From NCBI GenBank assembly GCA_034423035.1, contig DAOUJF010000010.1:20594-84593 (forward strand): a stretch of DNA of 64,000 nt, in the 5' to 3' direction. The translations under genes were made by a program, and so were the position numbers. Origin of the DNA: Dehalococcoidia bacterium (GTDB lineage Bacteria; Chloroflexota; Dehalococcoidia; Lucifugimonadales; VXLM01). Below the pieces are notes generated by a model. It saw only the letters and a list, made by a program, of their open reading frames with translations, searched no databases and was not told the origin of the DNA. Positions 5,666 through 52,236 of this stretch are shown here, in pieces. The number at the start of each line of letters is the position of its first letter. Position 1 is the first letter of the stretch.

Positions 5666-5692
5666 GTCATTCCGGTGGAGGCCGAAATCCAT
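5666..5692 (+). repeat. REP-like hairpin, family A
   Basis: gtcattccggtggaggccgaaatccat. Same GTCATTCC..stem-loop..GGAATCCAT design as 10 other copies. Confidence 0.7.
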
Positions 5693-25467: not shown

Positions 25468-25494
25468 GTCATTCCTGCGTAGGCAGGAATCCAT
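25468..25494 (+). repeat. REP-like hairpin, family A
   Basis: gtcattcctgcgtaggcaggaatccat. Confidence 0.75.
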
Positions 25495-26588: not shown

Positions 26589-26677
26589 CCCCGGCTTCTG
26601 GACTCCGGCCTACGCCGGAGTGACGGTGCAACACCATTTTCATCGTTTGATAGTGTCGGTGGCAACCGATGGTTCTG

Positions 26678-29506: not shown

Positions 29507-30652
29507 TCATCCCTCAAGCACATTCCGCGAAATAATCATCCTCTGTATTTCTGACGTGCCCTCATATATCTCCGTAATCTTCGCGTCGCGATACAGTCTC
29601 TCCACCGTCGAGGGCGAAAAATACCCGACTCCCCCGTGTATCTGGACGGCCCTGTCCGCCGTCTCGACCGCGACACGCGACGCAAAGAGCTTCGCCATCG
29701 AGGCTTCCTTGACGAACGGCCTCCCCGCGTCTAGGAGCGTCGCCGCCTGCATCACCAGCAGCCGCGCGGCCTCGACCTCCGTTGCCATGTCGGCGATCAT
29801 CCACTGGATCCCCTGCATCTCCGAGATGGTCTTCCCGAACGCCTCGCGTTGCTTCGCGTACTTCACTGCCTCCTCATACGCGGCCTGCGCCACGCCCACC
29901 GCCTGCGCCGCTATCCCGATGCGGCTGGCGTTTAGGACCTCCATAGTGGCCCTGAATCCCTCGTATTCCTCGCCCATCCGGTTGGTCACGGGCACCCGGC
30001 AGTCGTCGAAGAACACCTCGCACGTCGACGATGCCCGTATGCCCATCTTGCCGTGCATGGGAGTGATGGTCATGCCCGGCGTGTCGCCGTCCACGATCAG
30101 CGCAATGAAGCCCCTTGAGCCGAGGCTCGGATCGAGCGATGCAAGCACGGTGAGCACACCGGCCTCAGTTGCATTCGTGATGAAGACCTTCGACCCGTTC
30201 AGCACGTAGTCGTCGCCGTCTCGCTTGGCCGTCGTGCTGATAGAGGCCGCGTCGCTCCCCGCGCCCGGCTCCGTGAGGGCGAACGCTCCAATCGTCCTCC
30301 CCGCCGTCATCCCCGGAAGATATCGGTTCTTGTGCTCCTCCGTTCCGTGCATGTTAATGAACTGGGCCGCAAGAGACTGGTGCGCGACGTACACCGTACT
30401 CGTCCCCGTGCATCCCCGCGCAAGTTCCTCCGCGACAATCGCCCCTTGCCGCGCCGTTCCTCCGCTCCCACCGTACGCTTCATCAACTCCCAGCCCGAAC
30501 AGCCCAAGCTCCGCCAGACCCTCCACGTTATCAGCCGGAAACTCCCCACTCTCGTCATATCCTGCCGCCCTCGGCGCGAGCACGTCGTCCGCAAACTCCC
30601 GCACCGCCGTACGGAGCAGCTGCTCTTCATCTGTCAACAAGAGGTGACTCAT
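29507..30652 (-). CDS. acyl-CoA dehydrogenase
   Basis: 381 aa, full ACAD sequence: FALTEPGAGSD, C-terminus IYEGTSEIQR. Confidence 0.92.
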   Translation of the reverse strand: MSHLLLTDEEQLLRTAVREFADDVLAPRAAGYDESGEFPADNVEGLAELGLFGLGVDEAYGGSGGTARQGAIVAEELARGCTGTSTVYVAHQSLAAQFINMHGTEEHKNRYLPGMTAGRTIGAFALTEPGAGSDAASISTTAKRDGDDYVLNGSKVFITNATEAGVLTVLASLDPSLGSRGFIALIVDGDTPGMTITPMHGKMGIRASSTCEVFFDDCRVPVTNRMGEEYEGFRATMEVLNASRIGIAAQAVGVAQAAYEEAVKYAKQREAFGKTISEMQGIQWMIADMATEVEAARLLVMQAATLLDAGRPFVKEASMAKLFASRVAVETADRAVQIHGGVGYFSPSTVERLYRDAKITEIYEGTSEIQRMIISRNVLEG

Positions 30653-30688
30653 CGCGCCCCTGACAAAAGACCTCTACGCCATAGAATT

Positions 30689-30715
30689 GTCATTCCGGCG
30701 GAGGCCGGAATCCAG
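30689..30715 (+). repeat. REP-like hairpin, family A
   Basis: gtcattccggcggaggccggaatccag. Confidence 0.75.
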
Positions 30716-30780
30716 CACCTGGCACCCAGCACCTAGAACCCGACTGGCAGTATGACGCACCGAAATGACCGATTGCAACC

Positions 30781-30810
30781 TTGACACAGGCTCTCCCGCA
30801 CCTTTACAGT
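30781..30810 (+). promoter_or_regulatory. promoter-like TTGACA-N18-TACAGT upstream of aroG leader
   Basis: ttgaca caggctctcccgcacctt tacagt. The -10 box ends 10 nt before the leader ORF ATG. Confidence 0.35.
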
Positions 30811-30820
30811 AGATTGCGAG

Positions 30821-30907
30821 ATGCGAATATCCGGTCGCTACGCGTACTATTACTTCTACTTTACCGGCCCAACGGCAGCCGGAGGAGGACAGGTGCGCGG
30901 GACGTAG
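30821..30907 (+). CDS. putative Tyr/Phe-rich leader peptide (28 aa) of an aroG attenuator
   Basis: ATG CGA ATA TCC GGT CGC TAC GCG TAC TAT TAC TTC TAC TTT ACC ... TAG translates to MRISGRYAYYYFYFTGPTAAGGGQVRGT. That is 5 Tyr and 2 Phe within 8 consecutive codons. It is not in the ORF track because it is too short. Confidence 0.55.
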   Translation: MRISGRYAYYYFYFTGPTAAGGGQVRGT

Positions 30908-30939
30908 ACCGACAAGCATCCCAAGCGAGAACACCGAGA

Positions 30940-30968
30940 CCTCAACCGGCAGCGGTTGGGGTCTTTTC
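30940..30968 (+). terminator. intrinsic-terminator-like hairpin (attenuator 3:4) in the aroG leader
   Basis: cctcaaccg gcag cggttgggg tcttttc: a 9-bp stem (one G-U), tetraloop and U-rich tail, 20 nt before the aroG ATG. The upstream gene is divergent, so this cannot be its terminator. Confidence 0.6.
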
Positions 30969-30988
30969 ATGCGTGAAGGAGCACTCGA

Positions 30989-32050
30989 ATGCTAGAGACC
31001 AAGACAAGGGACGTTAACGTGCTAAAGACGGAGAAGCTGATTCCTCCGGCGGAACTCATCGAGGACCTGCCGACCACCCCCAACGCGAAGCGGACGGTCG
31101 TCGAAGGACGGCGCGCGATCCAGGCGATTCTGGAAGGCGAGGACTCCCGGTTCCTCGTCATTACGGGTCCGTGCTCGATCCACGACGAGAGCGCCGCTCT
31201 CGAATATGCGCGGCGGCTGTACGACCTGAACCAAAAGTACGCCGACCGAATGCTCGTCGTCATGCGCGCCTACTTCGAGAAGCCGCGCACGACAGTCGGT
31301 TGGAAGGGACTTCTCTACGATCCGCACCTGAACGACACCTTCGACATTACGTCAGGACTCCGCAAGGGAAGAAGGCTCCTGCTGGACGTCGCGGAGATGG
31401 GCCTGCCGTCGGCAACCGAGTTCCTCGATCCCATAGTGCCCCAGTACCTTGCCGATCTCATTAGCTGGGTGGCTATAGGCGCACGCACGACCGAGAGCCA
31501 GACCCACCGCCAGATGGCAAGCGGCCTCAGTATGCCGGTCGGCTTTAAGAACGGCACCGACGGCAATACCAAGATCGCCGTCGACGCCATCGTGTCCGCC
31601 CAGGCGCGACACGGTTTTCTCGGCATCGACCAATCGGGCCGCACCGCCGTCATCCACACGACCGGCAACCCCTACGGACACCTCGTCCTGCGAGGCGCGA
31701 ACGACGGCCCGAACTTCGATCCCGGCTCCGTCGCCTCGGCCAAGCGGCAGCTCGAAAGCGGCGGCGCTGCCCCCCATCTCGTCGTCGACTGCAGCCACGG
31801 CAACTGCAACAAGGACTATACCAAGATGCACGAGGCATTCGAGAGCGTCGTCCAGCAGCGAGTCGACGGAAACGATGGCGTCATCGGCGCCATGCTCGAA
31901 AGCAACCTCAACCCCGGAAGCCAGAAGATCAACGGCGACTTCTCCAAGCTGGAGTACGGAGTCTCCATTACCGACCCCTGCATCGGCTGGCAGGAGACCG
32001 AAACCCTGCTCGGCTGGGCATACGAGCGGCTGGGGAACGACTCTCACTAG
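30989..32050 (+). CDS. aroG: 3-deoxy-7-phosphoheptulonate (DAHP) synthase, class I (AroG/F/H type)
   Basis: LIPPAELIEDLP..GEDSRFLVITGPCSIHDESAALEYARRL is collinear with E. coli AroG. GAAGGA lies 8 nt upstream of the ATG. Confidence 0.92.
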   Translation: MLETKTRDVNVLKTEKLIPPAELIEDLPTTPNAKRTVVEGRRAIQAILEGEDSRFLVITGPCSIHDESAALEYARRLYDLNQKYADRMLVVMRAYFEKPRTTVGWKGLLYDPHLNDTFDITSGLRKGRRLLLDVAEMGLPSATEFLDPIVPQYLADLISWVAIGARTTESQTHRQMASGLSMPVGFKNGTDGNTKIAVDAIVSAQARHGFLGIDQSGRTAVIHTTGNPYGHLVLRGANDGPNFDPGSVASAKRQLESGGAAPHLVVDCSHGNCNKDYTKMHEAFESVVQQRVDGNDGVIGAMLESNLNPGSQKINGDFSKLEYGVSITDPCIGWQETETLLGWAYERLGNDSH

Positions 32051-32130
32051 ATCGTGACGCTCGTCTCGACTACTCAGGAACTATCTCAAAATTCCCATCG
32101 AAGACTACTGAATAGAAAAACGGAAGCGGA

Positions 32131-32170
32131 AAACACGTTCGCCCTGAGCCTGTCGAAGGGCAATTCAACA
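32131..32170 (+). repeat. REP-like element, family B
   Basis: aaacacgttcgccctgagcctgtcgaagggcaattcaaca, near-identical to 33823-33863. Confidence 0.75.
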
Positions 32171-32249
32171 ACAAGCCTGAGAGTCTTGGGATAACCTCTT
32201 GGGATGGGCGGCCACATCAAATTCCTGTGATACACTCCCACAACCTGAA

Positions 32250-32972
32250 ATGACCGACCAAGAACCGCCAACAGAGACCGAGCGAAGCCCCGGACGCATA
32301 AGCGTCCTGTGGGGCATCACCGACGCCTTGATCGGTTTCGCCATCGTCGTCTGCGGCAGCTTGGTCTCCCTGCTTGCGTTGGGACGACTGCTCGGCTCAT
32401 TGGAACGACAGACCGACGGGGTAACCACCGTCGTCCTGTTTCTGCTCCAAGTCCTCATGTTCGCCACAGTCTGGCTCCTAGCAGTCAAGTGGCGGGGCGC
32501 GAGCCTGAGCAGCCTGGGCATGGGAACGAGCGGTCTCCACTGGCCCAAGATCATCGGATGGGCGGTGCTGGCGCTGGGACTGAGCATTGTCGCCGGCGTT
32601 GCCTACCAACTCATCGTGGCAGGCTTGGGCATCGACTCATTGGAGCCTTCCCCAGTACCCGAACGACTGCTGGGGGAGGGAGCCGTTCGAGCATTCACGG
32701 TCGGCATCCTCGTCGTCGTTGGCCCCCTCGCGGAGGAGGTCTTCTTCCGAGGGTTCCTGCTCTCCGCATTTGTGCAGGGCATCGGGATGCTGCCCGGCCT
32801 CATCGTCGCATCAGCGATATTCGCCGTCGCCCACGGTGACCTCGCCGTCCTCCTGCCAACCTTCGCCAGCGGAGCAATTCTCTCCTGGCTGTACCTCCGA
32901 ACACGCTCGCTCTGGCCGGGCTTCCTCGCCCACGCGGGCCAGAATAGCCTCGCAGTGACATTCGCCGCATGA
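32250..32972 (+). CDS. CPBP-family intramembrane glutamic endopeptidase (CAAX protease-like)
   Basis: EEVFFRGFLL and FAVAHG motifs, polytopic. ATG 32250 (alternative TTG 32199). The stop overlaps the trpA start (ATGA). Confidence 0.75.
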   Translation: MTDQEPPTETERSPGRISVLWGITDALIGFAIVVCGSLVSLLALGRLLGSLERQTDGVTTVVLFLLQVLMFATVWLLAVKWRGASLSSLGMGTSGLHWPKIIGWAVLALGLSIVAGVAYQLIVAGLGIDSLEPSPVPERLLGEGAVRAFTVGILVVVGPLAEEVFFRGFLLSAFVQGIGMLPGLIVASAIFAVAHGDLAVLLPTFASGAILSWLYLRTRSLWPGFLAHAGQNSLAVTFAA

Positions 32973-33769
32973 CCGTCTCAAATCGACTCGACCAGACGCT
33001 CAGCAAGGCCCGCGCCGAGGGCAGGAACGTCCTTTCCCCGTACATTACCGTGGGATTCCCGGATGTCCTCACGTCCGTCGATATCGCAGAGGCAATCTTG
33101 AAAAACGGCGGCGACCTGCTGGAAATCGGCGTCCCCTTCAGCGACCCCATGGCCGACGGTCCCACGGTGCAGAAGACGAGCTTCCACGCCCTTCAACACG
33201 ACGTCAGTGTGGGGACGTGCCTTGACGTTGTCCGGCAGCTCCGGTCGAGAGGTATCGAGTCACCGCTCATGCTCATGGGCTACTGCAACCCGTTCCTCAA
33301 GTACGGCCTTAGAGATCTAGTGCGAGATGCGGCGGACGCCGGCGTCGATGGGCTGATTGTCCCCGATCTCCCGCCGGAGGAATCGACGGAACTGGAGGCG
33401 CTCTGCGCTGAGAACAACATCCACCAGATACACTTCGTCGCCCTCACCAGCACCGACGAGCGAATCGAGTACATATCCAGTCACGCGAGCGGCTTCATCT
33501 ACTGCGTTGCGGTACTGGGAGTTACCGGCGCGCGCCAGGATATCCGCTCCGACGTCGCCGAGCTCGTGGGACGAGTGAGGCAGCACACGGACGTGCCTGT
33601 CATCCAGGGATTCGGTGTCTCCAGCAAGGAGCACATCGACGCCATCGCGACCTACGCCGACGGCGCAATCGTCGCCAGTGCCATGTTCGACGCCATAGAA
33701 CACGCTTCTGCCGACCAAAAAGTACAGGCCGCCGTCGACTTCGTCAAAGGACTTAAGGGCCGCCGGTAA
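32969..33769 (+). CDS. trpA: tryptophan synthase alpha chain
   Basis: ITVGFPD....LE.GVPFSDP.ADGPT.Q, GVDGLIVPDLP, GFGVS; 266 aa. No trpB in the window. Confidence 0.92.
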   Translation: MTVSNRLDQTLSKARAEGRNVLSPYITVGFPDVLTSVDIAEAILKNGGDLLEIGVPFSDPMADGPTVQKTSFHALQHDVSVGTCLDVVRQLRSRGIESPLMLMGYCNPFLKYGLRDLVRDAADAGVDGLIVPDLPPEESTELEALCAENNIHQIHFVALTSTDERIEYISSHASGFIYCVAVLGVTGARQDIRSDVAELVGRVRQHTDVPVIQGFGVSSKEHIDAIATYADGAIVASAMFDAIEHASADQKVQAAVDFVKGLKGRR

Positions 33770-33822
33770 ACCCTCTCAAACCGAATCTGAATCACTAAGA
33801 GACCACCAACTCTACACAATGG

Positions 33823-33863
33823 AAACCACGTTCGCCCTGAGCCTGTCGAAGGGCAGTTCAACA
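33823..33863 (+). repeat. REP-like element, family B
   Basis: aaaccacgttcgccctgagcctgtcgaagggcagttcaaca. Confidence 0.75.
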
Positions 33864-33914
33864 CCGATACGAAGAGTTTTGAGATAGTTTCAAAGCACTG
33901 ATTTCTACGAACCA

Positions 33915-34283
33915 ATGGCAAAGATACGAGGCATACGCGGCGCCACAATCGCCGACGACAACACCCAGCAGTCCATCCTCGAAGCGACAGTCGAACTCCT
34001 CACGGTCTTGGTCGAGTCGAATGAGGTCGAGGTGGACGACATCGCGGCGGCCTACTTCACCACGACCCAGGACCTGAATGCCGAGTTCCCCGCCGCAGCC
34101 GCCCGGCAGCTTGGATGGCAGTACGTTGCCCTCCTCTGCGCCCATGAGATGCAGGTGCCCAACGCCATGGATCGAGTGATCCGCGTGATGCTCCTCGTCA
34201 ATACCGACAGAGAAGCCTCGGAAATCGAGTTCCAGTACCTCCGAGGCGCCGACGCCCTCCGCAAGCGCGTCGTAGAAACATAG
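33915..34283 (+). CDS. aroH: chorismate mutase, AroH class
   Basis: MAKIRGIRGATIADDNT....I..AT.ELL; 122 aa, typical monofunctional AroH-type CM. Confidence 0.85.
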   Translation: MAKIRGIRGATIADDNTQQSILEATVELLTVLVESNEVEVDDIAAAYFTTTQDLNAEFPAAAARQLGWQYVALLCAHEMQVPNAMDRVIRVMLLVNTDREASEIEFQYLRGADALRKRVVET

Positions 34284-34322
34284 TCGCCCACCGCACCGAC
34301 TCGCCGACCGGAGAAAAATGCC

Positions 34323-35543
34323 ATGAAAGACTGGGACCTCCAAACCCTCTTCGACCGTGGAATGCTCGAAGACGCCATCGTCCGCGATGAGCTGTTCAAC
34401 GACATCGCCAACGGCAAGCGGCTCACCATCTACCAGGGGTTCGACCCGACCAGCCCAAACATGCACATCGGCCATCTGGTGGGCCTTCGTGTTCTCAGGT
34501 GGTTCCAGCTTCACGGCCATCACCTCATTCTCCTGATCGGCGACTTCACCGGACGCATAGGCGATCCCTCCGACCGCCCGGAGGCCCGCAAGCGCCTCAC
34601 CCACGCCGAAGTCCTCGAAAACGCCGAGACCTACAGCGAACAGTTCTCCAGGATATTCGATCTCGATGGCGAAAACCCCGCGGAGATCCGGTTCAACGGA
34701 CACTGGCTCGACAACATCACTCTATCCCAGTTCGTCGAGATCATGGACAAGTTCACCGTCCAGCAGCTTCTCGAACGCAGCATGTTCCAGGAGCGCCTGA
34801 AGAACCAGGAGGCGCTCTACCTGAACGAGATGATCTATCCCATCCTGCAGGGGTACGACTCCGTGGCGATGGAGGTGGATGCAGAGCTTGGCGGATCGGA
34901 CCAGCTATTCAATATGATGCGGGGCCGCGACCTCGTGGAGTCGTATCTGGGTAAGACCAAGCACGTGCTCACTACGCAGCTTCTGGAAGGCCTCGACGGT
35001 CGCAAGATGAGCAAGACCTACGGCAACACGGTCGACCAGACGGAAGACCCCGTGCCCATGTTCTTCAAGCTCACGCTCGTCCAGGACTCCAAGCTGCCGC
35101 GCTTCATGCAGGTCCTCACCGACCGCACGGACGACGAGATAGCCGCCATCGAGGAGCGCGCCAAGACCGAGCACAACATGATCGACGCCCGGCAGCAGTT
35201 CGCCCACGACATAGTGTCGATGCTCCATTCCGTCGAAGCGGCAGACGAGGCCCAGCGCGAGTTCGAGCGAGTCGTCAACGAGGGCGAGCTGCCCTCCGAC
35301 ATCCCCGACCTTCACGTTTCCCCCGACACCCACCGCGACGATGGCGTCGGAGTCGTCGACCTCCTGGCCCTCAGCGACTTGGTGCAGAGCAAGAGCGACG
35401 CCCGCCGCCTCGTTCAGCAGGGCGGCATCCGCATCAACGGCGAGATGATCGAAGACCCGCGCTCATCCATTTCCGCATCAAGACTGGCCGGAGCGCTCGT
35501 CAAAATCGGAAAACGAGGCTACGTCCGCGTCAGGGTAGGGTAG
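34323..35543 (+). CDS. tyrS: tyrosyl-tRNA synthetase
   Basis: GFDPTSPNMHIGHLV (HIGH), KMSKT (KMSKS), C-terminal S4 domain; 406 aa. Confidence 0.95.
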   Translation: MKDWDLQTLFDRGMLEDAIVRDELFNDIANGKRLTIYQGFDPTSPNMHIGHLVGLRVLRWFQLHGHHLILLIGDFTGRIGDPSDRPEARKRLTHAEVLENAETYSEQFSRIFDLDGENPAEIRFNGHWLDNITLSQFVEIMDKFTVQQLLERSMFQERLKNQEALYLNEMIYPILQGYDSVAMEVDAELGGSDQLFNMMRGRDLVESYLGKTKHVLTTQLLEGLDGRKMSKTYGNTVDQTEDPVPMFFKLTLVQDSKLPRFMQVLTDRTDDEIAAIEERAKTEHNMIDARQQFAHDIVSMLHSVEAADEAQREFERVVNEGELPSDIPDLHVSPDTHRDDGVGVVDLLALSDLVQSKSDARRLVQQGGIRINGEMIEDPRSSISASRLAGALVKIGKRGYVRVRVG

Positions 35544-35636
35544 GGCTGTGAAAATCCCCTCTCCCGTCGTGGGCTGACAGGGGTATGTATTTGACTATCA
35601 GCCACTCTCCATGAACCTGCAAGCAACCCCTTGACT

Positions 35637-35677
35637 GTCATTCTGAGCGCAGCGGAGCGGAGTCGAAGAATCTAAAA
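35637..35677 (+). repeat. REP-like hairpin, family A' (GTCATTC.GA..GAATC type), inside MITE
   Basis: gtcattctgagcgcagcggagcggagtcgaagaatctaaaa. Inverted partner at 35780-35811. Confidence 0.7.
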
Positions 35678-35779
35678 TGTTTGTCACAACGTAAAGCTGA
35701 CACGGCAAATTCTTACCCGGTTTGACTGTCGGTCATGATGAGAATCGTTGCACTGGCTGTCCGGTCTTGCGGTTATGGA

Positions 35780-35811
35780 TTTTAGATTCCTCGCTAGGCT
35801 CGGAATGACAG
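35780..35811 (-). repeat. REP-like hairpin, family A', inverted partner inside MITE
   Basis: ttttagattcctcgctaggctcggaatgacag. Confidence 0.7.
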
Positions 35812-35880
35812 GGTTGCGGTGGTCGGATCATAGCTGCAATCCCATTTTACATACCCCTGTCAGCCCGTCGTGGGAGAGGG

Positions 35881-36249
35881 CTAGGGTGAGGGCGGCTTCT
35901 CCGTAGCACGCTCTTTCTGGACAATGATTTCCAGTTGTTCGATCAAACGAGGCAGGTCGTCGTGAACTATGGTCCAGAGGCGATCAAAGTCAACTGAGTC
36001 ATAGCCGTGTATTAGTCGGTTGCGTAAGTCCGTGATGTCGCGCCATGGTCTCTGTGAGTATCGTGAACGAAAGTCTTCAGGGACTCGTCCAGCCGCCTCA
36101 CCAATGACCTCCAGCAATCTCACTAGGGCAAGATTCAGCATTCGATTGCTGTCGATGTCGGCTCGCGAACGGCCACGGAGCATGTCAACCGCTTCCCGCG
36201 CCCGCTCAAGCATGTGCTGGACTCGAACTAGAGGGTCATCCCTGGGCAT
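35881..36249 (-). CDS. hepT: HepT (DUF86) RNase-type toxin
   Basis: RNRLIHGYDSVDFDRLW (Rx4HxY motif). ATG 36249 (alternative GTG 36267) overlaps the mntA 3' end. Confidence 0.8.
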   Translation of the reverse strand: MPRDDPLVRVQHMLERAREAVDMLRGRSRADIDSNRMLNLALVRLLEVIGEAAGRVPEDFRSRYSQRPWRDITDLRNRLIHGYDSVDFDRLWTIVHDDLPRLIEQLEIIVQKERATEKPPSP

Positions 36250-36538
36250 AGACCACCAGGGATTCACTGAGTACGAGATGCCGGAAGGAAGGGTCTAGAT
36301 CGTTCGCCGTATTCAGGTCCACCTGCCTCCCTATGACCTCGCTAAGCTCTCGTTGCATAGAAAAAAAGGCTAGGCCCGGAGTATGCCCACGCTCGAACTC
36401 CACCAGCACGTCAACATCACTATCAGCCGAGAAGTCGTTTCTCAGCACCGAACCAAACAGTGACAGTTGTCGGATGTGATGCTGCTGGCAGAAGTTCGTA
36501 ATCTCTTCCTGAGGGATGTCGATATTCAGTGTCGTCAT
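36236..36538 (-). CDS. mntA: MntA nucleotidyltransferase antitoxin
   Basis: LSLFGSVLRNDFSADSDVDVLVEF (GS..DxD NTase motif). ORF trimmed to ATG 36538. Confidence 0.8.
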   Translation of the reverse strand: MTTLNIDIPQEEITNFCQQHHIRQLSLFGSVLRNDFSADSDVDVLVEFERGHTPGLAFFSMQRELSEVIGRQVDLNTANDLDPSFRHLVLSESLVVYAQG

Positions 36539-36555
36539 TGTTCTGCCTCCACTCC

Positions 36556-37872
36556 TCACCGAATCCGCAGCATCACCCGCCGTACCGCATCCACTAGAGC
36601 GTCGATCTCCCCCTCCGTCGTCAGCGAGCAAAGAGCCCCTGCCGCCTTCGTCTGCATCAGTATCCCCTCATTGAGCAGACCCGCGAAGAGCTTGCCCTGC
36701 ATCTCGCGATCGGCCCGCAGCACCGAGCGGTAGTCGACGATCCGCTCATCCGTGAAGTGGATGCCGAACAGCGAACCCACACCCGTCACCTGCACTGCTA
36801 TGTCGAGCTCGTCGAACACTGCTCTCAGCTTCGCGCGAAACATATCGCCAAGCGCGTTCATGCGCTCGTACACCTCCGGCGATAGCTGGTCCAGCGTCGC
36901 CAGTCCCGCCACCATCGTCATCGGGTTCGCGTTGAACGTCCCGGCGTGAGAGACCACTGGCGCGTCCGTCGGGTCGTAGAGGTCCATCAGGTCTGCTCGC
37001 CCGCCCCACGCTCCGACCGGCATTCCCCCGCCTATCACCTTCCCGAACGTCGTCATGTCGGGGATGACGCCCATCTGCTCCTGTGCCCCGCCCCGCGATA
37101 GCCGGAAGCTCTGCACCTCGTCGAAGATGAGTATCATCCCCAACTCATTGGTGATGTCTCTCAGAAACGCCAGGTAATCGCCGTCGGCAGCCAGATACCC
37201 GAAGTTCGACAGCACCGGCTCGATGATCACGCAGGACACCTCGTCCTCGTTCTCCCGCAGAATCCGCTCCGTCGACTCGATATCGTTATAGTGCAGCGTG
37301 ACAACGTCCTCGACCACGCTCGGAGGCTGCCCCGGCCACTCGGCAACGCTCGTCGGTTCCACGGGGTCGAGCGTGTCGAGAGGAGTATAGACGCTTACCG
37401 ACACGTACTCGTGGTTCCCGTGGTAGCCGCCCTCGATCTTGGCAATCTTGTGCTTGCCCGTGTACGCGCGGGCAGCGCGGATGGCGTTCAGTGTTCCCTC
37501 GGTGCCCGAGTTCGTGAACCGCACCTTTTCGACCGATGGCACCCGCTCGCACAACTCCTGCGCCAGCCGCACTTGCGATTCGTGCGGCGTGCTGTAGCTC
37601 AGACCGTCTACGGCCTGCTCACGCACCGCATCGACCACCCTGCCATTCGAGTGGCCGAGCACATAGGTCGTCGCGTTCAGCATGAAGTCGAGGTACCGGT
37701 TGCCGTCCACGTCCACGACGTGGTGCCCCTCCGTCCGCTCGACGAAGAACGGATACGGCCCAAAATACGCCGTCCCCCGCGAACTCCCGCCCGGCAGATA
37801 CCGCTCCGCCTCAGCCTGAAGCTCCGCCGACTTCGGCGTCGACGCTACGTAACGATCAACTTCCGAGTCCAT
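36556..37872 (-). CDS. class III aminotransferase, glutamate-1-semialdehyde aminomutase-like
   Basis: ATG 37872; SGTEGT, GGYHG, LIFDEVQSFR, TFGKVIGGG (PLP Lys) pattern of the GSA-AM family. Confidence 0.85.
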   Translation of the reverse strand: MDSEVDRYVASTPKSAELQAEAERYLPGGSSRGTAYFGPYPFFVERTEGHHVVDVDGNRYLDFMLNATTYVLGHSNGRVVDAVREQAVDGLSYSTPHESQVRLAQELCERVPSVEKVRFTNSGTEGTLNAIRAARAYTGKHKIAKIEGGYHGNHEYVSVSVYTPLDTLDPVEPTSVAEWPGQPPSVVEDVVTLHYNDIESTERILRENEDEVSCVIIEPVLSNFGYLAADGDYLAFLRDITNELGMILIFDEVQSFRLSRGGAQEQMGVIPDMTTFGKVIGGGMPVGAWGGRADLMDLYDPTDAPVVSHAGTFNANPMTMVAGLATLDQLSPEVYERMNALGDMFRAKLRAVFDELDIAVQVTGVGSLFGIHFTDERIVDYRSVLRADREMQGKLFAGLLNEGILMQTKAAGALCSLTTEGEIDALVDAVRRVMLRIR

Positions 37873-43011: not shown

Positions 43012-43038
43012 GTCATTCCAGCGGAGGCAGGAATCCAT
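43012..43038 (+). repeat. REP-like hairpin, family A
   Basis: gtcattccagcggaggcaggaatccat. Confidence 0.75.
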
Positions 43039-47334: not shown

Positions 47335-47361
47335 GTCATTCCCGCGTAGGCGGGAATCCAG
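47335..47361 (+). repeat. REP-like hairpin, family A
   Basis: gtcattcccgcgtaggcgggaatccag, within the pheS-pheT spacer. Confidence 0.75.
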
Positions 47362-52209: not shown

Positions 52210-52236
52210 GTCATACCGGCGAAGGCCGGTATCCAG
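52210..52236 (+). repeat. REP-like hairpin, family A variant
   Basis: gtcataccggcgaaggccggtatccag. Confidence 0.75.

Follow-up and report, generated by a model that had tools for sequence, protein, structure and literature searches.

Probable leader-peptide attenuation of a DAHP synthase gene by a Tyr- and Phe-rich leader in Dehalococcoidia

Introduction

The closest described counterpart of the element reported here is the aroR leader of Corynebacterium glutamicum, which carries the codon series F-Y-F and lies upstream of aroF, a gene for 3-deoxy-D-arabino-heptulosonate-7-phosphate (DAHP) synthase (Mentz et al. 2013, PMC4046766). As cited in PMC11802643 and PMC7356990, Neshat et al. (2014, J Biotechnol) report that aroR attenuates aroF transcription under phenylalanine (Phe) limitation. 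The Escherichia coli genes aroF, aroG and aroH are controlled by the TyrR and TrpR repressors and not by attenuation (PMC11802643). Leader peptides without untranslated 5' regions are described for Deinococcus deserti, in which they number 14, and for corynebacteria and mycobacteria (PMC4007540; PMC5784534; bioRxiv 10.1101/834739). Here we analyse a 64,000-nucleotide (nt) stretch of a Dehalococcoidia bacterium of the phylum Chloroflexota (contig DAOUJF010000010.1, positions 20,594 to 84,593; in the following, the window), in which an aroG-type DAHP synthase gene is preceded by a short open reading frame (ORF) rich in tyrosine (Tyr) and Phe codons and by a predicted transcription terminator.

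Dehalococcoidia of the SAR202 type are uncultured and abundant in the deep ocean and in sponges, and to our knowledge nothing is known experimentally about gene regulation in them. Attenuators of DAHP synthase genes are unmentioned in Naville and Gautheret 2010 (PMC2965389) and in Seliverstov 2005 (PMC1262725), and our search of the literature and of Rfam found no description of such an element in Chloroflexota or SAR202. A preliminary description of the locus, made from the sequence alone, had implied that a Tyr-rich leader of a DAHP synthase gene would be new; the aroR-aroF pair is a precedent that contradicts this in general, but for the Chloroflexota the claim stands with our search.

Results

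A leader ORF with a dense run of aromatic codons precedes aroG

The region upstream of aroG quite likely acts as a ribosome-mediated (leader-peptide) attenuator, through which the availability of charged tRNA-Tyr and tRNA-Phe would set the expression of aroG, and probably of the whole gene cluster behind it. The support for this reading is computational and comparative throughout. The promoter, the leader and the regulated gene are arranged as follows.

30781-30810, + strand: sigma-70-like promoter with -35 box TTGACA (30781-86), 18-nt spacer and -10 box TACAGT (30805-10); promoter scan, 10/12
30821-30907, + strand: leader ORF of 28 codons plus stop, MRISGRYAYYYFYFTGPTAAGGGQVRGT; sequence reading and ORF listing
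30839-30862, + strand: regulatory codon run YAYYYFYF, with 5 Tyr and 2 Phe in 8 codons; sequence reading
30975-30981, + strand: Shine-Dalgarno sequence GAAGGAG of aroG, outside the terminator hairpin; sequence reading
30989-32050, + strand: aroG-type (type I-alpha, AroFGH family) DAHP synthase of 353 amino acids, the regulated gene; NCBIfam TIGR00034 with ~477 bits, PRK12755 with 501 bits

The preliminary description had already named the leader ORF with its five Tyr and two Phe codons, its stop codon TAG at 30905, the TTGACA-N18-TACAGT pair and the DAHP synthase gene, and all of these were found again at the same positions, with each coordinate checked by script and the gene identified by its NCBIfam and PRK matches. 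The DAHP synthase scores lie under the AroG and AroH equivalog cut-offs and do not assign the enzyme to a Phe-, Tyr- or Trp-sensitive isozyme. Across the six frames of the window, only four of 127,954 eight-codon windows contain at least six aromatic codons, and all four lie inside the aroG leader; the next best of the 921 short ORFs of the window reaches five of eight, and a search of the window for further leader-like ORFs gave no convincing case. The locus thus has what characterizes this class of attenuators, namely clustered cognate codons in a short ORF upstream of a biosynthetic gene. An alternative 78-amino-acid ORF in another frame (30781-31017) was rejected: its first codon falls within the -35 box, its end runs past the start of aroG, and its frame is interrupted by stop codons in the relatives.

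Two promoter-like sites, among them the TTGACA/TACAGT pair, were found in 1.1 kb, compared to 0.2 in shuffled sequences. The -35 box TTGACA is identical across 13 related loci, including two with non-homologous leaders (L089 and L002). In the same 13 loci, the distance from the end of the -10-like hexamer to the leader start codon is only 7-12 nt, and a Shine-Dalgarno sequence is absent. Because of this promoter geometry, the transcript is probably leaderless or nearly so, with translation of the leader ORF beginning at or close to its 5' end.

Directly upstream of the -35 box, a block at 30747-30780 (GGCAGTATGACGCACCGAAATGACCGATTGCAACC) is kept in three relatives (L081, L082, L108) and partly in two more (L084, L109). 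Read on the minus strand, it contains TTGCAA-N18-CATACT, and it is probably the promoter of the divergent acyl-CoA dehydrogenase gene, placed back to back with the leader promoter.

Predicted RNA structures change with the position of the ribosome

The whole leader RNA folds with -69.1 kcal/mol (z-score -3.46), and folding, together with a terminator scan, yields the following segments, which could pair in alternative ways.

30841-30868, + strand: segment 1, 5' side of the 1:2 (anti-antiterminator) hairpin, overlapping the Tyr/Phe codons and ending with CCGGC at 30864-68; minimum-energy fold
30868-30899, + strand: segment 2, partner of segment 1 or, as antiterminator, of 30932-30960; alternative pairing
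30936-30968, + strand: intrinsic terminator (segments 3 and 4), stem 30936-48:30953-65, loop GCAG, U-rich tail to 30968; folding and terminator scan

In the minimum-energy fold, the 1:2 hairpin consists of the helices 30841-48:30892-99, 30853-57:30883-87 and 30864-68:30878-82, with -24.7 kcal/mol for the hairpin alone, and the Tyr/Phe codons themselves are base-paired as its 5' strand. The terminator stem is GC-rich and comprises 13 base pairs (bp; -22.5 kcal/mol alone); the background of the terminator scan is ~0.7 sites per shuffle of the aroG leader region. The antiterminator arises from the stretch 30868-30896 (CCCAACGGCAGCCGGAGGAGGACAGGUGC), which is a near reverse complement of 30932-30960: its pairs are GGUG:CACC upstream of the terminator, GAGG:CCUC and GCCGG:CCGGC on the 5' arm, and CCCAAC:GUUGGG on the 3' arm. 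The duplex of segment 2 has an energy of -24.6 kcal/mol with the 5' side (segment 3) alone and of -40.4 kcal/mol with both arms. Each of these pairings had been recognized in part by the preliminary description. CCGGC (30864-68) is indeed predicted to pair with GCCGG (30878-82), but within a hairpin that is longer than the 5 bp then assumed and has two more helices; GCCGGAGGAGG (30878-88) can indeed pair with CCTCAACCGGC (30940-50), but as part of an antiterminator that reaches from 30868-30896 to 30932-30960 and engages both arms; and the hairpin 30940-48/30953-61, with loop GCAG and tail TCTTTTC 20 nt before aroG, is present, but with 13 instead of 9 bp. As also argued there, this hairpin cannot be the terminator of the upstream gene, because that gene, for an acyl-CoA dehydrogenase (29507-30652), lies on the minus strand.

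A scan of 4227 families of Rfam 15 with cmscan (E <= 10, region 30400-31300), a check proposed with the first reading, returned only a spurious miRNA match on the opposite strand and no leader, T-box or riboswitch; at gathering thresholds, the whole window yielded 2 tRNAs only.

The proposed constrained folding was carried out with a ribosome mask of 28 nt, comparing the equilibrium fold for each position of the A site, and the predicted fold indeed switches between terminator and antiterminator with the ribosome position. In free RNA, the terminator state is preferred (-64.8 vs -54.8 kcal/mol). With the A site on codons 10-12 (Y10, Y11, F12), the antiterminator becomes the optimum, by a margin of ~1 kcal/mol for Y10 and 4-5 kcal/mol for Y11 and F12. 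From codon 13 on, the terminator is again the optimum, and with the ribosome at the stop codon it is preferred by 4.8 kcal/mol. This switch at the end of the aromatic run, with antitermination through the run and termination just after it, was found in 8 of 11 homologs. Such a ribosome-dependent switch occurred in 0/150 dinucleotide shuffles of the part upstream of the terminator, and any antiterminated position at all in 3/150.

Folding of the growing RNA length by length gave a similar picture. With no ribosome on the RNA, the 1:2 hairpin is present from an early stage and is retained, and the terminator is first seen at 30965. With a ribosome on F12, GGUG:CACC appears at 30935, GAGG:CCUC at 30945 and GCCGG:CCGGC at 30950; these helices precede the terminator 3' arm and then extend onto it, and the terminator never forms. 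With a ribosome at the stop codon (footprint ~30890-30917), GCCGGAGGAGG (30878-88) is left uncovered. Here, the 1:2 core holds for RNA ends 30900-30945. For RNA ends 30950-30960, the equilibrium optimum passes for a short while to the 2:3 pairing, and at full length it is the terminator. Masked folding therefore agrees with the earlier proposal that a stalled ribosome would free the antiterminator, but not with its second half, that a ribosome finishing the leader would mask it, because the footprint misses GCCGGAGGAGG.

The leader is conserved in related Dehalococcoidia

We compared the DNA around related aroG genes (AroG 62-95% identical) from Dehalococcoidia and SAR202-type metagenome-assembled genomes (MAGs). 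A profile search of contigs with the AroG alignment gave, among the matches listed, relatives of at most 62% identity, and close relatives were fetched individually. A metagenome scan with the 20-nt terminator core added 13 stretches, a set biased towards invariant terminators; about half of them (L090, L094, L095, L097, L100, L102) were discarded as chance or coding matches. Of the distinct loci whose AroG is 62% identical or more, 13 in number, 11 have an aromatic leader, and 10 of these leaders are homologous to that of the window. The homologous leaders found encode the following peptides.

L081: MRVSNRYVYYYFYFTGPTAAGEGQVRGT
L108: the L081 peptide with one substitution
L082: MRISNRYAPYYLYFTGPAAAGGGQVRGT
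L084: MQIRNSYAYYWYYFTGPTAAGEVQVRGK
L109: MHTRNSSVYYWYYFTGPTVAGVGLVRGT
L087: MRKSELRAYYYFYFSGPTVAGGGLVRGT
L103: MKSVRPYYWSYYFIGSAGGGLLREQ
L105: MVKLQSAYYNYSYFTGAIAAGEELVRDDN
L001: MMISSHRFYGYYWLFTGSSAAGRGLVPENR
L098: resembles L001
L101: MRSTNLAFSGYYFYRFTIAGVAGRGLVP

The leader of L089, whose AroG is 67% identical, is unrelated to these; it reads MTSASSLWFYGYYYFIDVNKVGRGDAS and is followed by a terminator of its own.

The frame is open in all 11 homologs, with ORFs of 25-30 codons, and the parts of the leader vary in different ways. The five N-terminal codons are variable at all three codon positions (seven gap-free homologs). The aromatic run is kept, while its order varies, TAC and TAT (19/13) as well as TTC and TTT interchange, and Tyr, Phe and Trp swap places; some homologs have one Trp codon in the run, and in such relatives tRNA-Trp would be sensed too, which we hold as part of the attenuator reading. 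The 3' half is nearly invariant as nucleotides, and its changes fall on second codon positions (GGA/GAA/GTA, CAG/CTG) and unpaired sites, which argues that it is the RNA that is constrained and not the peptide. This pattern points to a translated sensor followed by a structural RNA, unlike a peptide with its own function. The comparison of related aroG upstream regions, likewise proposed at the outset, thus recovered a Tyr/Phe-rich upstream ORF with a terminator, and the alignments indicate that the leader frame and the regulatory codons are conserved in orthologous loci, as is expected of this class of attenuators. The Shine-Dalgarno sequence GAAGGAG or AAGGAG is kept before the aroG ATG in close relatives.

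An RNAalifold consensus of 12 leaders recovered the CCGGC/GCCGG hairpin, GGUG/CACC and the terminator. In the 12 aligned sequences, 97.2% of cells are paired in the terminator state, compared to 26-59% with slid partners, and 89.9% in the antiterminator state, compared to 21-49%. The CCGGC/GCCGG core is paired in 95% of cells in the aligned homologs, and the terminator is conserved in 12/12 aligned leaders (98% of cells paired). The U-rich tails are conserved, too.

Two further observations concern possible copies of the element elsewhere. L091 (3257-3425, minus strand) has the same terminator and promoter geometry with a shorter leader that starts at GTG and has three aromatic codons (ending ..SYDPYFTGAITRR). 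In L093, the terminator and the segment GGTTTGGTGCCCGAA are kept without a recognizable aromatic ORF or a downstream aroG. Both may be degenerate or redeployed copies.

Aromatic leaders before other DAHP synthase genes

Of 89 DAHP synthase loci from many phyla among the matches listed, 10 have upstream ORFs with at least six aromatic codons in eight on the sense strand; on the antisense strand none does, and no window there exceeds 5. Upstream of type I-alpha DAHP synthase genes, non-homologous aromatic-rich ORFs (L003, L002, L034, L048, L035, L058) also occur in other Chloroflexota, in Desulfobacterota, in an unclassified bacterium and in a MAG from the Gammaproteobacteria, and four of them are followed by a strong terminator.

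L003, Chloroflexota: leader MIQNYFTYYYYFKKRRANCRV
L002, Chloroflexi: leader ..FYFYAY..
L034, Desulfococcaceae MAG: leader MGHFFAGGYFWFWYYFYTGLLPGVR
L048, Deltaproteobacteria: leader ..AYRYYYCYYYT..

The equilibrium ribosome-mask scan gave no clean switch for these six loci and L089. Candidate complements of the terminator that resemble segment 2 were seen by eye in L048 (CUGCGGC/GCCGCAG) and L034 (UUCUGCCU/AGGCAGAA). Taken together, the strand bias and the terminators suggest that the aromatic upstream ORFs of other lineages are candidate convergent attenuators.

Five other Dehalococcoidia MAG loci (L030, L045 and L049, ~150-310 nt upstream of aroG, and L004 and L007) have conserved upstream ORF ends, which fall into two groups, ..YFGY(S/T/G)YT(G/D)(G/R)LF(T/M)YG(L/R)SYRS and ..(N/T)YRW(F/T)YICRRRA, each up to the stop codon. 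No obvious U-tailed terminator follows the conserved ORF ends of these five loci. They may represent more divergent aromatic leaders or another type of regulation.

A mixed aromatic gene cluster lies downstream

Behind aroG, the following genes were found.

32199-32972, + strand: CPBP/Rce1-like protease
32969-33769, + strand: trpA, without adjacent trpB
33915-34283, + strand: type I chorismate mutase CM_1
34323-35543, + strand: tyrS (tyrosyl-tRNA synthetase)

The order aroG, CPBP protease gene, trpA, chorismate mutase gene, tyrS is shared with seven relatives (L081, L082, L084, L087, L103, L108, L109). The sole terminator-like site on the + strand in 31900-36600 lies inside the CPBP gene (32414-32433) and is within shuffle expectation. 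The genes from aroG to tyrS are thus likely co-transcribed, and a sensor of Tyr and Phe, and sometimes Trp, fits the control of a mixed aromatic cluster. Such a cluster is unusual.

We also noted a 25-nt palindromic element resembling repetitive extragenic palindromes (REP), GTCATTCC-NGCG-NAG-GCN-GGAATCC, with seven copies in the window and none expected by chance: 30689-30713, 5666-5690, 25468-25492, 26600-26624 (minus strand), 43012-43036, 47335-47359 and 52210-52234. Relatives carry it as well (L087, four copies in 2365-2734; L081, 1306-1325), and changes in the stem between copies preserve pairing (CCGGC/GCCGG, CCTGC/GCAGG, CCCGC/GCGGG). The copy at 30689-30713 has the acyl-CoA dehydrogenase gene on one side and the promoter of the aroG leader on the other.

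Discussion

Proposed mechanism

The predicted intrinsic terminator between leader ORF and structural gene, and the computed antiterminator that excludes this terminator and is itself countered by an anti-antiterminator overlapping the regulatory codons, have the architecture of a classical attenuator. Conservation and masked folding support the initial reading of a trp/pheA-type 1:2/2:3/3:4 attenuator that senses Tyr and Phe before aroG. From the sequence elements, their conservation and the folding energetics we infer where transcription would start, that the leader would be translated, that ribosomes would stall in it, and the response to be expected in vivo. Transcription would begin at the leader AUG or a few nt before it, and translation would be leaderless. 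With Tyr and Phe plentiful, the ribosome would pass the aromatic codons; once it is past the run, either the ribosome would cover segment 2 or segment 1 would pair with it again (CCGGC:GCCGG and its extensions), and with segment 2 unavailable the 13-bp terminator would form and RNA polymerase would stop ~20 nt before aroG. Under a shortage of charged tRNA-Tyr or tRNA-Phe, the ribosome would stall inside YAYYYFYF and cover segment 1, and the freed 30868-30896 would zip onto the emerging terminator, with GGUG:CACC, GAGG:CCUC and GCCGG:CCGGC forming in this order and CCCAAC:GUUGGG on the 3' arm lastly. This would block the terminator and allow transcription of aroG.

Weighing the alternatives

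Several observations weigh against this mechanism. Translation of the leader rests on an inferred leaderless start, as no Shine-Dalgarno sequence precedes the ORF. The U-tract of the terminator is short (UCUUUUC; TCTTTTC in DNA). With the A site on the last aromatic codons, Y13 and F14, the terminator is preferred by 3-6 kcal/mol at equilibrium, and readthrough from these positions would therefore have to be kinetic. Three homologs with very strong terminators (L103, L105, L101) are never antiterminated in the minimum-energy mask scan. The paired positions are largely invariant, and covariation is therefore scarce: both partners change in no more than 1-2 pairs, a number also attained in 71-115/500 trials with shuffled controls. 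The helices are thus supported by conserved pairing potential and not by compensatory change. Finally, the related aroG copies L083 (80% identical) and L088 (69%) are without the leader element. Transposase genes of the IS1595 and IS3 types lie on the flanks of L088, and L083 has a phage capsid-like gene behind it, which suggests mobile or paralogous copies that escaped from attenuator control.

Some of these points would suit an untranslated leader whose conserved RNA binds a ligand, a tRNA or a protein and works through the same terminator, in the manner of a riboswitch, a T-box or TRAP/PyrR. Any factor that sequesters segment 1 could drive the choice between terminator and alternative pairing, in the 3' half of the leader it is the RNA and not the peptide that is conserved, and the lack of a Shine-Dalgarno sequence is expected. 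Yet no Rfam family, T-box included, matched at E <= 10, and the frame is open over 25-30 codons in all homologs, in which the swaps of TAC for TAT and of TTC for TTT keep the codon meaning. The in-frame aromatic run is moreover the only feature in common with the non-homologous leaders (L089, L002, L003, L034, L048), and the start codon lies 7-12 nt from the -10 box, as leaderless translation predicts; we therefore consider an untranslated regulatory RNA quite improbable. An explanation that we regard as improbable, too, takes the hairpin for a constitutive partial terminator, an insulator or an RNA-stability element, and the ORF for an aid to aroG reinitiation or the gene of a functional micropeptide. 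Leader genes have been proposed to raise downstream translation (PMC4833913), the leader peptide peTrpL is reported to act in trans in Sinorhizobium, and the C-terminal half TGPTAAG.G.V appears conserved. This conservation, however, concerns the nucleotides, and unpaired positions show non-synonymous changes; the leader stop and the start of aroG are 82 nt apart and separated by a 13-bp hairpin, and aroG has its own Shine-Dalgarno sequence. Nor is chance expected to yield the far-reaching complementarity of 30868-96 to the two terminator arms and its dependence on ribosome position, which 0/150 shuffles reproduced.

Short ORFs and hairpins are common in DNA of 60% GC, and with ~0.7 terminator-like sites per shuffle of the region, a chance ORF beside an ordinary hairpin of no regulatory function might be imagined. 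The comparative data effectively refute this, and we give it only a minimal probability: the window has no second aromatic run of this kind, relatives with AroG identities as low as 62% keep the whole arrangement, and aromatic upstream ORFs are enriched before DAHP synthase genes on the sense strand only. That the related loci are assembly duplicates of one genome is made unlikely by their divergent flanks and by AroG identities of 62-95%. The leader-peptide attenuator thus remains our preferred reading of the locus.

Implications

If this attenuator operates as proposed, it suggests that transcription and translation in these Dehalococcoidia are coupled tightly enough for classical attenuation, that these bacteria probably translate leaderless mRNAs, and that entry into the shikimate pathway is regulated by tRNA charging, instead of or besides repressors. 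The understanding of attenuation itself is unchanged, as principle and target enzyme have precedent, but through this instance regulation becomes open to testing in a lineage that is uncultured and of ecological importance. With ~160 nt, the element could serve as a compact, portable test system, as a candidate Rfam family, and as a marker for annotating aromatic-pathway operons in metagenomes. On balance, we lean towards regarding it as the first member of an RNA family not yet described, namely leaderless Tyr/Phe(/Trp) attenuators with a both-arm antiterminator and a mixed aromatic cluster that would be widespread in marine and sponge Dehalococcoidia (SAR202-like). It would at the same time exemplify a wider tendency, evolved convergently in several phyla, to place aromatic-codon leaders upstream of type I-alpha DAHP synthase genes.

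Comparison with known systems

The pheL-pheA and trpL-trp systems of E. coli and other Gammaproteobacteria (Yanofsky 1981; Zurawski 1978; PMC3082878) share with the aroG leader the 1:2/2:3/3:4 logic, the overlap of the regulatory codons with segment 1 and the terminator before the gene. They differ in that their leaders have a Shine-Dalgarno sequence, sense a single amino acid and control genes of terminal branches, and in that the antiterminator of the window would pair with the 3' arm of the terminator as well. With the leader peptides of Deinococcus, corynebacteria and mycobacteria, the aroG leader has in common an ORF at or near the 5' end of the transcript, without Shine-Dalgarno sequence, before genes of amino-acid biosynthesis or tRNA synthetases. 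Their starts were mapped by RNA-seq, whereas a leaderless start in the window is predicted from the promoter geometry of 13 loci. The corynebacterial attenuators are reportedly leaderless transcripts, which would agree with the geometry predicted for the window.

Of the known systems, aroR-aroF resembles the locus most closely, with a Phe/Tyr-codon leader directly before a DAHP synthase gene, ribosome stalling and the same pathway step. However, aroR has only F-Y-F and only a response to Phe was shown for it, whereas the window leader has five Tyr and two Phe in eight codons, and some of its relatives have one Trp codon. The two systems also belong to different phyla, Actinomycetota and Chloroflexota, and the cluster of the window adds trpA, chorismate mutase and tyrS. 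Because of the different phylum and the non-homologous leaders even within the Chloroflexota (L089, L002, L003), an origin independent of aroR is likely. The mechanism is thus classical trp/pheA attenuation, and a Phe/Tyr leader for DAHP synthase was already known; what is new is the phylum and the sequence family. Among known systems, the features by which this predicted attenuator would stand out are its Tyr-dominated sensor and an antiterminator that captures both arms of the terminator.

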